In this document: piece by piece, positions 9,457 to 29,127 of the stretch
Layout of the letters: each line of letters begins with the position of its first letter
Numbering within the stretch: position 1 is the first letter of the stretch
Source of the DNA: a virus
Lineage: Duplodnaviria > Caudoviricetes
IMG/VR virus record: IMGVR_UViG_3300011335_000408
Span: 1-29,367 of that record
Length of the DNA stretch: 29,367 nt
Reading direction: 5' to 3' (one strand)
Translations under genes and position numbers: made by a program
Notes under the pieces: generated by a model
The model's input: only the letters and a program-made list of their open reading frames with translations
Databases searched by the model: none
Told to the model about the DNA's origin: nothing

Positions 9457-9644
9457 TGGAAAAAAGTATAGAGCAAATTACACAGATGATACATAGTAAA
9501 ATCTCATTGATGCTTATCAGTGAGTTACCTGTGCCATCATGTCCATTAAAAAAACAACAAAGGGAGTGGAAGGTAGAGCAAGTAAAAAAAGCATTAGCAA
9601 ATAAATTAAGTCCACAAGGGTTAAGCATAACAGTTAGTTTATGA
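9456..9644 (+). CDS. Hypothetical protein (62 aa)
   Basis: Translationally coupled on both sides (TAATG, ATGA). Confidence 0.65.
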   Translation: MEKSIEQITQMIHSKISLMLISELPVPSCPLKKQQREWKVEQVKKALANKLSPQGLSITVSL

Positions 9645-10432
9645 CACAACAAGAGCAACAGGCATATTGGAATAAGTGGAACAAGTTTCAACAAAGATAT
9701 GAGAAGTTGTATGAGCCTAAGTTTCATAAAGCTTTAAAGATTCAGTTGGATGCATTTATAAAGACACAGGATCCTATGACATTGCCAGTGTTCCCAATCT
9801 ATGAGGTGTTAGTATCTTTGTATAAGACGGTGGGGCCAGCGTGGGCTAGAGTAACTAGAACAGAATCAATAAAGGCTGATGATGCATTTGTTAGTGGTCA
9901 AATGGGGTTTAATGAAAGGATAGTAGAGTTAATGAATCAGTACTATGGTATTGATTTGTTGAATGATGCAAACCTAATGACAAGTTATAGCACATCATTC
10001 ATACAACAGGTGTTAAGTGATGCGGCTGTAACAGGTGCCTCATTTGATGATATAGTAAGGCAGTTGTTGGTTAGTCCGGCATTCAATGCAATGAGGGCAA
10101 GGAGGATAGCAAGGACTGAGACTGTTACCAGTGCAAATGGTGCTGCTATGATTTATGCTAATGAATCAGGCAATGTAATGGAGAAAGTATGGATAGCAGT
10201 AAAGGATAGTAGAACGAGGCATGATCATAAAATGGTAGACGGTACTAGGTTACCAATTGAGACACCATTTACTTTGACAAATGCAAAACTTGGTGATATT
10301 GGAATGATGCAACCTGGTGTGAGAACACAACCAAATGGGTTGGCAGTTCCAGCTAGTGAGGTAGTTAATTGCAGATGTACGGTGGCATTTCAAGCTAAGA
10401 GGGACAGGAATGGTAGAATAATTAGAAGATAG
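9641..10432 (+). CDS. Minor head protein (Mu gpF / SPP1 gp7-like)
   Basis: RARRIARTETV, KVWIAVKDSRTRHDH..VDG and VNCRC signatures. Confidence 0.9.
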   Translation: MTQQEQQAYWNKWNKFQQRYEKLYEPKFHKALKIQLDAFIKTQDPMTLPVFPIYEVLVSLYKTVGPAWARVTRTESIKADDAFVSGQMGFNERIVELMNQYYGIDLLNDANLMTSYSTSFIQQVLSDAAVTGASFDDIVRQLLVSPAFNAMRARRIARTETVTSANGAAMIYANESGNVMEKVWIAVKDSRTRHDHKMVDGTRLPIETPFTLTNAKLGDIGMMQPGVRTQPNGLAVPASEVVNCRCTVAFQAKRDRNGRIIRR

Positions 10433-10462
10433 TTAAGAGATGTTTAAGAGACATTTAAGAGA
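10433..10462 (+). repeat. Three TTAAGAGA direct repeats with 11-bp period
   Basis: Copies at 10433, 10444 and 10455. Confidence 0.8.
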
Positions 10463-10468
10463 TAAGAT

Positions 10469-10557
10469 ACTTGGTTGGCGTAATTGGGAATGAATACCAA
10501 CATTAGGAAACGCCCTTACATAGTAGGAAGATAAGGGTGCAAATCCCTTACCAGGTA
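10469..10557 (+). ncRNA. tRNA-like RNA 1 (expanded D-loop, collapsed anticodon loop)
   Basis: Acceptor ACTTGGT/ACCAGGT, D stem GCGT/ACGC, stem CTTAC-ATA-GTAGG, T arm AAGGG-TGCAAAT-CCCTT. No encoded CCA. Confidence 0.7.
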
Positions 10558-10590
10558 CTAAAAAAAAGTAATTACATTTTAAAATAAAAT

Positions 10591-10603
10591 AGTAACTTTA
10601 TAC
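10591..10603 (+). promoter_or_regulatory. Candidate late promoter AGTAACTTTATAC
   Basis: Matches the 6305 motif at 12 of 13 positions. Ends 2 nt before the protease ATG. Confidence 0.5.
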
Positions 10604-10605
10604 CA

Positions 10606-11349
10606 ATGAACAGTATTTACACAATAAAGGACATTTCAATAGCATCTGAGATAATGGATATGAATCCAATACAGGGCATTGTAACTGGTTACTTTAGCAA
10701 GTTCAATAATGTTGATGCAGATGGAGACATCATGAAGCCTGGAGCATTTACTAAGACAATTAGTGAGCAAGGCCCGGCATCAGCACAACCGAGAATAAAG
10801 CATTTGCTTAACCATGATCCTGCACAACCTTTGGGCAAATTACTAAGTTTAAAGGAAGATGCTTATGGCTTGTATTATGAGAGCCAAGTGGGAACGCATG
10901 AGGGCGGTGAGGACTTTATAAAAATGGTTGAGAGTGGATTAATAACTGAGCATTCAATTGGGTTTAAAATAATTAAGCGTAACCAAGTCCAATCCTATGA
11001 AAACTATTTACGCAATCCATCATTAGGCCAGTTTGAGATTACTGAGGTAAAGTTATATGAGGGTAGTTCATTGACGGCATGGGGTGCTAACGCACTTACA
11101 CCAATCACATCACTTAAGGGTGATAAGAATTTAGATGTAGACATGATAGTAGCTAAGACGGCTGCTATTGATAAGTTCTGCAGAAACACAACGGCAACAG
11201 ATGATACAATACAGATGTTGTTGTTACATAGCAAACAATTAGCTCAGTTAATTCTAGATATGAAATCTAACACTACTCAACCGGATAACACCATTGAGCC
11301 AGTAGATGAAACATTGGATATTATAAGAGCGTTTAGAAATAAAATTTAA
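10606..11349 (+). CDS. HK97-family prohead protease
   Basis: GYFSKFNNVDADGD, LLNHD, HSIGF and LYEGSSLTAWGAN motifs. Confidence 0.93.
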   Translation: MNSIYTIKDISIASEIMDMNPIQGIVTGYFSKFNNVDADGDIMKPGAFTKTISEQGPASAQPRIKHLLNHDPAQPLGKLLSLKEDAYGLYYESQVGTHEGGEDFIKMVESGLITEHSIGFKIIKRNQVQSYENYLRNPSLGQFEITEVKLYEGSSLTAWGANALTPITSLKGDKNLDVDMIVAKTAAIDKFCRNTTATDDTIQMLLLHSKQLAQLILDMKSNTTQPDNTIEPVDETLDIIRAFRNKI

Positions 11350-25544: not shown

Positions 25545-25989
25545 TAGCATCAAAAAATTGCATAAACTTAATTAAGTTATTTGAGGGGTATAAGCTAAGG
25601 CTTACTTATGCCCGGCATCAGTAGTAACCATAGGATGGGGCAGTACCATGTACACTGATGGTAGAAAAATAAAAATGGGTGATACCATTAATGAGCAACA
25701 AGCTGAGCAGATGCTTATGTGGGAATTGAAAAATAAATCTGTTGCTTTGCATGGCCTTAATCTTAATCAAAATCAATTTGATTCATTATTATCTTTTGTT
25801 TACAATCTTGGTATTGGAGCATTTGCTAAATCAACACTAAGAAAAAAGATTTTAACCAATCCTAATGATCCTACAATAAAAGATGAGTTCATGCGTTGGA
25901 ACAAAGCAAGAGTAGGTGGGGAATTGATGGAGCTTAAAGGTCTCACTAGGCGCAGAACATGTGAGGCTGAATTATACTTTAAATTATGA
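25541..25989 (+). CDS. GH24 (T4-like) lysozyme endolysin split by a 1-nt frameshift near 25594-25600
   Basis: Frame from 25541 gives MIASKNCINLIKLFEGYK. The -1 frame gives AKAYLCPASVVTIGWGST and continues to LNQNQFDSLLSFVYNLG...GLTRRRTCE. Joining restores the E-x8-C-x5-T triad. Confidence 0.9.
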
Positions 25990-27981: not shown

Positions 27982-28028
27982 AATAAAATTACTTAAACGG
28001 TGGCACCGACACAGCCATATTTAAAACA

Positions 28029-28080
28029 ATGGGATCAATAATCAAAAATTCTGCCATTTACCTTACCATCAGTGATGGCA
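28029..28080 (+). repeat. Diverged copy of the 5' end of the SSB-like gene (28459-28510)
   Basis: 52 nt with 4 mismatches. Encodes MGSIIKNSAIYLTISDG versus MGQIIKNSAIYLTISDG. Confidence 0.95.
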
Positions 28081-28213
28081 ATTAATCATTCGTGAAGATA
28101 ATGAGCGTGAGAATGACTTAAAGTTATTCAATGCAACTAAACTTTTATGGGATGCGCAAAACAGCGACATGAAGCCTAATAACAAATCTTATTCATTAAC
28201 ACATAAATTGTAG
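28076..28213 (+). pseudogene. Diverged copy of the 3' end of the nuclease gene (27592-27729)
   Basis: 138 nt with 9 mismatches, no indels. Encodes WQLIIREDNERENDLK...THKL* with no start of its own. Confidence 0.95.
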
Positions 28214-28215
28214 TT

Positions 28216-29019: not shown

Positions 29020-29031
29020 CCTAACAACTTT

Positions 29032-29127
29032 AATCAGGTGGCGGAATATGGCGCTAAAATAAGGAGGAGAGGTTACCGAGTCGCAAGCCATGCGAGAGCT
29101 TCACAGGTTCAAATCCTGTTCTGATTA
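29032..29127 (+). ncRNA. tRNA-like RNA 2 (non-canonical anticodon region)
   Basis: Acceptor AATCAGG/TCTGATT, TG, D arm GCG-GAATATGG-CGC, T arm ACAGG-TTCAAAT-CCTGT. About 48 nt between D and T arms without a standard anticodon arm. Confidence 0.75.

Follow-up and report, generated by a model that had tools for sequence, protein, structure and literature searches.

What is a tRNA-shaped sequence without an anticodon doing between two head genes of a phage? The stretch of DNA that we analysed (29,367 nucleotides, hereafter the window) is a near-complete phage genome of 29.4 kb with overlapping ends (IMGVR_UViG_3300011335_000408, positions 1 to 29,367), and its genes run in the order terminase, portal, MuF-like head protein, prohead protease, and HK97-type capsid. 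An initial annotation, made from the sequence alone, described a cloverleaf between the MuF-like and protease genes and proposed that it was a non-decoding tRNA mimic, which would act either as an mRNA-processing signal or as a decoy against tRNA-targeting defence. Here, we ask whether the element is real, which of its parts are under selection, and which functions fit.

The host of the phage is likely to belong to the Bacteroidota, because of a terminase match (a terminase 55% identical to the window's in 1 of 401 Bacteroidota genomes), because of the phages that its SSB-like protein and its terminase match (the best cultured match of the SSB-like protein is Cellulophaga phage phi46:1, at 30%, and Bacteroides phages are among the best cultured full-length matches of the terminase, at 32%), and because of a TAnnTTTG-like box. 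These are weak signs, short of a host assignment. The box, which stands just before the protease gene (Table 1), presumably is a promoter or initiation signal of the Bacteroidota type. A scan for sigma-70 promoters and terminators near the element gave nothing exceeding chance. Elsewhere in the window, we noticed that the SSB-like gene (28459) has its 5' end partly duplicated at about 28030-28080, within the gap at 27982-28215. The 5' end of a lysozyme ORF (25545-25989, 113 aa) looks short, and a broken or frameshifted start may lie upstream.

Anatomy of the element

All of the parts of the cloverleaf that had been described were located at their positions in the window: an acceptor stem (10469-10475/10550-10556), a D stem of 4 bp (10478-10481/10510-10513), a 5-bp stem with a 3-nt loop in the place of the anticodon (10515-10527), and, after a 4-nt linker, a T arm (10533-10549). 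Two parts of the description need revision. First, the seven acceptor pairs are present, but the supposed discriminator, A10557, is itself paired, with T10468 (U-A in the window), so the acceptor stem has eight pairs. Second, the extra nucleotides of the D loop are present, but they are not unstructured filler: they form a 17-nt hairpin (4 bp and a 9-nt loop) placed directly after A14-A15. The loop of this hairpin is the most conserved part of the element (see below) and had been overlooked.

Table 1. Features of the element and of the genes on either side, in window coordinates
Feature	Position	Strand	Basis or remark
MuF-like head morphogenesis protein, gene upstream of the element	9641..10432	+	PF04233, phrog_2468
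Three TTAAGAGA units, from the MuF stop to the element	10433..10463	+	allele-specific spacer, outside the tRNA-shaped family
Complete element of tRNA shape (90 nt), the predicted mature form prior to CCA addition	10468..10557	+	segment parse
Acceptor 5' strand, 8 nt including position -1; partner 10550-10557	10468..10475	+	covariation
U8, G9, D stem 5' strand (10478-10481), A14 A15	10476..10483	+	U8/A14/A15 invariant in alignment A2 (see text)
D-loop insert, a hairpin with a 4-bp stem and the 9-nt loop GAAUGAAUA (10488-10496)	10484..10500	+	stem covaries, loop kept
Rest of D loop, A18 G19 (10505-10506), D stem 3' strand (10510-10513)	10501..10513	+	
Anticodon-position hairpin, 3-nt loop, no anticodon	10514..10528	+	both partners changed in 6/6 pairs
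Short variable loop with U48 last, then T arm with loop UGCAAAU	10529..10549	+	in A2, the T stem is 100% paired
3' strand of the acceptor (up to 10557), then CUA instead of CCA	10550..10560	+	
TAnnTTT(G/A)-like box directly before the protease start	10593..10600	+	in alleles with and without the element
Prohead protease, gene downstream of the element	10606..11349	+	PF04586, phrog_80

Taken alone, the window element did not fold better than shuffles (z of -1.1 and -1.3), Rfam had no match over it, and ARAGORN called no tRNA there. Because lone folding, ARAGORN, and Rfam give nothing, the proof that the element exceeds chance rests on comparison.

A family with covarying helices

Scans of viral and metagenome contigs with a core motif gave 195 matches (repeats between scans included), which parse into 78 distinct full elements, the window element among them. 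The parser dropped 23 core matches, of which four are members (L223/L529, L288, L317, L347) and the other 19 are chance-like, with no tRNA frame. These 19 include all eight matches of the exact core pattern in 185,579 prokaryote genomes, none of which has an acceptor or T arm. The window element scores 97.8 bits with the family model (R1), but it was among the training rows.

We aligned 44 of the 78 sequences, leaving out long inserts and near-copies (alignment A2). Within its five-helix structure, 97.0% of the cells are paired and 21 of the 27 pairs, including all eight of the acceptor, have changed on both sides; the score, with 301 cells changed on both sides, was reached by 0 of 500 shuffles, and slid controls were 36-45% paired. 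Eleven further matches that were aligned to the model were 95.2% paired, a figure that leans to the structure as it comes from fitting; in these matches, three of the four pairs of the insert stem changed on both sides. As the 78 sequences are akin, the pair counts overstate the independent events and these figures are not probabilities. Still, many positions of the acceptor and T stems show four or five pair types, which cannot stem from one inherited change. The initial annotation had named covariation in homologous regions as a test of its reading, and we find it in all five helices. Thus, the element is real and is one of a family, and comparison of the sequences establishes that selection acts on a cloverleaf frame whose acceptor stem has 8 pairs. 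(In some members, the D loop or the anticodon-position loop is enlarged by inserts of 15-55 nt: L147/L270, L319, L346, L123, L108, and L233. Three of the anticodon-loop inserts share a similar small hairpin.)

Features kept by selection

Position -1 is paired with position 73 in 71/78 elements, as compared to 12/78 for -2:74. The pair is A-U in 23, G-C in 16, C-G in 14, U-A in 11, and U-G in 7, and the remaining 7 are unpaired. After collapsing to 35 acceptor types, -1:73 is paired in 30, versus 14 expected (0 of 5000 shuffles). In the ordinary tRNAs of the carrier phages, U-1:A73 or U-1:G73 is found in 37/61 and other -1 pairs in 3/61; non-U pairs at -1 are found in 53/78 elements. A C comes next after the stem in 64/78 elements, mostly as CAA or CUA, and in 61/61 ordinary tRNA genes of carrier phages. 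By this measure, the 3' flank of the element resembles that of the CCA-less tRNA genes of its carriers.

The tertiary core of tRNA is also kept. U48 is found in 78/78 elements, and U8, A14, and A15 are invariant in A2, of which A14 and A15 belonged to the search patterns and U8 was required by the parser. In canonical tRNA, the contacts that link the D loop with the T loop are given as G18-psi55 and G19-C56 (PMC7609411). Elements with G55 have AG at D-loop positions 18-19 (19/19), and elements with U55 mostly have GG there (46/55); within the window's own clade, both U55 members (L003 and L018) have GG. The association between 18 and 55 overstates the number of independent events, since G55 is restricted to about two lineages, and it is only suggestive of a kept elbow contact. 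Among 166 ordinary tRNAs in the loci studied, one has G55, the tRNA-Ile(GAU) of L443, and in its D loop AG replaces GG. Our literature search found no paper on A18-G55.

In the inserted hairpin, the loop AAURAAUA is fixed while the stem changes. As the first search patterns contained the loop, we retested its conservation in two other ways. First, a scan that did not specify the loop (at least 119 loci) gave at least 38 distinct matches with GAAURAAUA, as sorted by eye; the other matches listed comprised at least four with AUAUAAAU, which form a sister subfamily, the odd element L392, and sequences that were either ordinary tRNAs or chance matches. Second, six loci (five distinct sequences) that the model found beside the SSB-like gene all kept AAURAAUA, and their insert stems were altered (GUGG/CCAC and UCGA/UCGR). 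Overall, the inserted loop is more conserved than any stem.

Features that vary

The loop in the anticodon position is 3 nt long in 29 of the 78 elements, 4 nt in 14, 5 nt in 13, 6 nt in 9, and 7 nt in 1, and a few have longer inserts. So, the 3-nt loop that was first noticed in the window is present, and across the family this loop has no fixed length or sequence. Among the 24 arms of near-canonical length, Y32-U33-R37 is found in one, whose stem continues into the loop. At the level of sequence, the anticodon arm is demonstrably a mere stem, free in length and composition. The acceptor is similarly varied, with 33 different strands among the 78 elements; U7-A66 is kept in 75/78 and G3:U70 is found in 0/78. 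Compared to a decoding tRNA, the element has the cloverleaf and the tertiary core but not the 7-nt anticodon loop, U33, R37, an unpaired discriminator, or conserved identity elements for a synthetase. Strong covariation, a free anticodon loop, and (as described next) the absence of an intact tRNA from the locus in relatives all bear out the original reading of a non-decoding tRNA mimic under selection.

Distribution and neighbours

Using the two flanking proteins as queries, we obtained 105 loci, in which the gap between the MuF-like and protease genes takes two forms, about 140 nt with the element and about 40 nt without it. Once duplicates and truncated loci are left out, the element is at the junction in 17 of 25 close relatives (window included) and absent from 8, and trees of the flanks require 3-4 changes between presence and absence. 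In all rows with 64-79% protease identity, the element is absent from the junction; the gaps are 25-42 nt, except for one of 209 nt in L104, which has no model match. None of the relatives has an intact tRNA at this junction. So, the short gap is the ancestral form, and the junction can do without the element. In most of the filled alleles, the element begins 1-3 nt past the MuF stop. The TTAAGAGA spacer that precedes it in the window has shorter versions in L010 and L020.

At other places, the element has many kinds of neighbours. A same-strand ORF ends within 170 nt upstream of 70/78 elements, and these ORFs form 19 clusters (some single ORFs are perhaps spurious); for 51 of the 70, the stop is within 12 nt. 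Among the neighbouring genes are those for MuF, SSB-like, amidase, exonuclease, HNH, helicase, and ParB-like proteins. The farther relatives G008, G009, and G010 lack the element in the head operon and have it near the SSB-like gene. A tRNA lies within 200 nt of five elements, and the elements of G041, G042, and L367 are inside tRNA arrays. In G041 (180 kb), the element is 6 and 5 nt from tRNA-Gly and tRNA-Arg in an array of about 25 tRNAs, so the maturation of these two tRNAs would free it. Every carrier searched has one copy per genome, and two near-complete relatives (G013 and G029) have no match.

None of the 41 window proteins was found in the carriers G041, G044, and G047 (98-100% complete) or in the fragments G042 (80 of 83 kb compared) and G043, so there is no phage-coded partner in common with this genome. 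Again judging from the sequences, the position and the neighbours of the element are clearly free. This disagrees with the proposal of an mRNA-processing signal between the minor-head and protease genes: 8 of the 25 close relatives and all of the farther ones run this junction without the element, and the same family is found at many other junctions and inside tRNA arrays. An element that is optional at the junction and follows 19 clusters of genes does not have the fixed position of an mRNA punctuation mark.

We also looked beyond the carrier phages. A search with R1 of 150 genomes from the order of G269 found nothing at E of 1e-10, a weak result given 28 scored candidates per genome and no positive control; G269 itself has just two 35-bit matches. 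In RNA run X1, contigs from a relative are about 88% alike over protease and capsid, and none spans the element or the copy in G008.

Sister elements

R1 also finds, at 36-47 bits, elements that share the 8-pair frame, lack an anticodon, and have in the D loop a hairpin whose loop is CAAUGA (L206, L207, L535, L537, L538, and L541) or CUUUGA (L534, 1839-1927). L541 has several hairpins, and L533 was grouped with the sister subfamilies. Two anticodon-less sisters, L198:3961-4037 and L433:1725-1798, keep all of the stems and have no inserted hairpin, which makes them natural deletion controls; the acceptor of the latter is that of a hairpin-bearing copy about 150 nt away. The same phage group has many other anticodon-less scaffolds. 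In L201, L204, and L205, a structured insert with a long closing stem and common motifs directly follows the SSB-like gene and has no R1 match.

The window has a second tRNA-shaped, anticodon-less element at 29031-29127 (+), behind the SSB-like gene, with 8-10 acceptor pairs and a T arm. It scores 30.6 bits with R1, having the same frame and no AAURA hairpin, and it is missing from its spot in 12 loci of close relatives. Its ends resemble those of the scaffolds L108:1068-1196, L534:1501-1577, and L538:1332-1442. An exact 17-mer from it had 9 matches, all unrelated, and no homolog was found.

We considered other readings of the inserted hairpin. As a second T loop (register N54-A-U-R-A-A-U60), it would fit two subfamilies, but in the CAAUGA loops, which have 6 nt, the last two positions are missing. 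The URA at the center of the loop recalls stop codons or Ser/Leu anticodons, but there is no U33 and this is a one-position coincidence. Finally, the D arm plus insert could be taken for a long anticodon arm, but U8, A14, A15:U48, and the 18/55 association fit an ordinary D arm.

Comparison with known RNAs

YrlA-type bacterial Y RNAs and the tRNA-like domain of tmRNA show that a tRNA-like elbow without a decoding anticodon can have a protein partner. However, Rfam gives no match to either over the element, except for one 17-nt scrap of a tmRNA T arm (14 bits), and the window has no Ro60/TROVE or SmpB gene. More broadly, no family of Rfam 15 fits except for tRNA, which 3 of 8 loci match marginally. 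Two members compared by BLAST with 50,697 GenBank phages gave scraps of T arms only, with no cultured carrier.

Canonical class I tRNA of bacteria and phages (RF00005) shares with the element the acceptor, D, and T arms, U8, A14, R15:Y48, the 18-19/55-56 positions, a short variable loop, and C after 73; the element differs by its lack of a 7-nt anticodon loop, its 17-nt D-loop hairpin, its paired discriminator, and its lack of fixed acceptor identity pairs. An extra -1:73 pair and hence an 8-bp acceptor is also found in tRNA-His and tRNA-Sec. In contrast to tRNA-His, the pair is G-C in only 16/78 elements (and U-A in the window) and there is no GUG anticodon, and in contrast to tRNA-Sec as described in PMC7609411, there is no UCA anticodon, long variable arm, or 6-bp D stem. 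The allo-tRNAs and irregular 'E-loop' tRNAs (Mukai et al., PMC5389517) are, like the element, irregular cloverleaves in bacteria and phages, and that paper reports that some are not used in translation and lie near toxin-antitoxin genes. In the description given there, however, the branches of these tRNAs are 8/4 or 9/3, and the tRNAs have anticodons and long variable arms, whereas the element combines 8 plus 5 pairs with a short variable loop and lacks an anticodon.

Among characterised RNAs, the nearest is RNAC (species 1) of phage T4 (NC_000866), which, with RNAD (species 2), is a small RNA within a tRNA array; in some carriers, the element too is located in such an array. RNAC has a T arm, an acceptor-like strand, CAA in the place of CCA, and no anticodon arm. 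It differs in being 139 nt long, with long unrelated hairpins, no D arm, and no AAURA loop. When R1 was run on the T4 locus L502, RNAC scored 19.2 bits (E of 0.087), below the ordinary tRNAs, and RNAD had no match; beyond the T arm and acceptor, no homology was found and the folds differ. The function of RNAC and RNAD is stated as unknown in PMC3014915 and PMC9697503.

In kind, the element would be a tRNA-framed small RNA comparable to T4 RNAC, but it is outside every family tested, and a literature search did not find a description of its family. A catalogue of 8,495 candidate RNAs from IMG/VR, five of them tRNA-like (PMC10690425), could be compared only in part: the core motif and the six contig ids that we tried are absent from its text supplements, and its tables give no sequences, so it could include the family as an unnamed entry.

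Possible functions

We propose that the element acts in trans, as a tRNA-shaped scaffold that presents the conserved D-loop hairpin to a host protein, an explanation that we believe slightly more than we doubt. The protein would most plausibly belong to anti-phage defence or to translation control. That it is a defence protein is a bet, carrying about half of the weight that we give to the scaffold, and we make it because the distribution is patchy, as for an accessory gene; patchy presence among near-identical phages resembles that of counter-defence genes. The RNA would arise by read-through transcription from the upstream gene. Host RNase P would then cut at -1 (or +1), the 3' trailer would be removed past 73, and CCA would be added. 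(In E. coli, a G-1:C73 pair shifts the cut to -1 according to PMC5499578, a rule that covers G-1:C73 only, and its use for the other pairs would be an extrapolation.) The paired, variable discriminator and the variable acceptor would keep the RNA uncharged, and the missing anticodon would bar it from decoding and shield it from anticodon nucleases. Lastly, the AAURA loop, on the elbow side, would bind and titrate the host factor. This last step seems likely because the loop is the sole conserved surface that tRNA maturation does not explain.

The covariation, the kept core, the -1:73 pair, the tRNA-like 3' flank, the array in G041, the conserved loop, the 19 clusters of upstream genes, and the lack of common proteins are all points in favour of such a scaffold. 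In particular, its optional presence, varied neighbours, and sites in tRNA arrays, with no proteins in common, argue against a signal of the head operon and for a trans-acting RNA. On the other side, the sisters in L198 and L433 show that the frame can persist without the loop, G013 and G029 are near-complete relatives that lack a match, and the differences in the loop among subfamilies (AUAUAAAU, CAAUGA, and CUUUGA) weaken the idea of one fixed partner. A broader and more tentative proposal, for which we would not argue strongly, is a superfamily of anticodon-less RNAs with 8-bp acceptors and swappable D-loop hairpins (AAURAAUA, AUAUAAAU, CAAUGA, and CUUUGA) that inhibit a host protein of defence or translation surveillance.

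A second possibility, which seems unlikely, is a decoy by shape alone: an uncharged tRNA body ending in CCA would soak up attackers of the 3' end or elbow (toxSAS or MenT-type) or would damp tRNA sensing, with the hairpin as a structural part. Selection on the full acceptor-T stack and the elbow, the sisters without an insert, and the many other anticodon-less scaffolds of the phage group all fit, but a loop that is conserved above any stem does not. The decoy of the initial annotation also needs changing as to its targets. What PrrC and other anticodon nucleases recognise is the anticodon stem-loop (PMC3014915), and the toxSAS FaRel2 is reported to select by acceptor-stem pairs 1, 2, 4, and 5 (10.1101/2024.07.05.602228). 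As far as these sources describe recognition, neither would be a natural target as such, PrrC because the stem-loop that it recognises is missing from the element and FaRel2 because the acceptor pairs that it reads vary freely in the family.

Third, and less probably still, the element could be a cis-acting mark, at which cuts by RNase P and RNase Z punctuate or destabilise the phage mRNA. Where an upstream gene is found, the element is always on its strand and usually close behind its stop, and excision necessarily splits the mRNA. However, the MuF-protease junction does without it in some close relatives and in all outgroups, members are found in tRNA arrays and before terminator-like hairpins (four, by script), filled and empty alleles alike have the promoter-like box before the protease gene, and the conserved loop is not needed for cutting.

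Fourth, it is improbable that the element is a selfish or hitch-hiking unit derived from a tRNA, spread by recombination or retro-insertion and harmless because it is excised. Insertion just behind stop codons at many places and the repeated changes in presence on the flank trees could be explained this way, but the copy is single in every carrier searched, filled and empty alleles show no target-site duplication, the carriers have no mobility gene in common, and compensatory changes accumulate in place within the window's clade.

Fifth, the loop might seed the pairing of a small RNA with phage or host mRNAs, and a stable scaffold with a fixed, single-stranded loop is indeed typical of seeds. 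This is very improbable for phage mRNAs, as the coding strand has 0-1 copies of the 9- and 10-nt complements, whether in carriers or in non-carriers; 8-nt complements slightly exceed expectation in the window and in G005 but not in G009 and G045, which is inconsistent, and an A/U-rich 8-mer pairs weakly.

Finally, although ARAGORN calls about 33/78 members tRNA-Lys, -Leu, -Ser, or undetermined (counted by eye) and 3 of 8 loci reach the Rfam tRNA threshold, we can hardly credit a disguised decoding tRNA (by intron or permutation) or a decaying pseudogene: Y32-U33-R37 occurs in a single arm, whose stem enters the loop, most of the loops have fewer than 7 nt, which leaves no intron whose removal could yield an anticodon, and the covariation excludes decay.

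Implications

Phage tRNA look-alikes of the RNAC and RNAD type have had no function assigned to them for decades, and most anticodon-less elements of phages are singletons that are indistinguishable from broken tRNAs. A family of at least 78 members separates what is kept (the frame, the elbow, the closed discriminator, and one loop) from what is freed (the anticodon, the acceptor identity, and the position). A defined wild type and mutants are thereby available for pull-downs and for tests of counter-defence. Also, ARAGORN's miscalls of members as tRNA-Lys, -Leu, or -Ser inflate the tRNA counts of phages. If the superfamily proposed above is true, then these phages would have an RNA-based class of counter-defence that is built on tRNA, and the tRNA frame would be a natural display scaffold.
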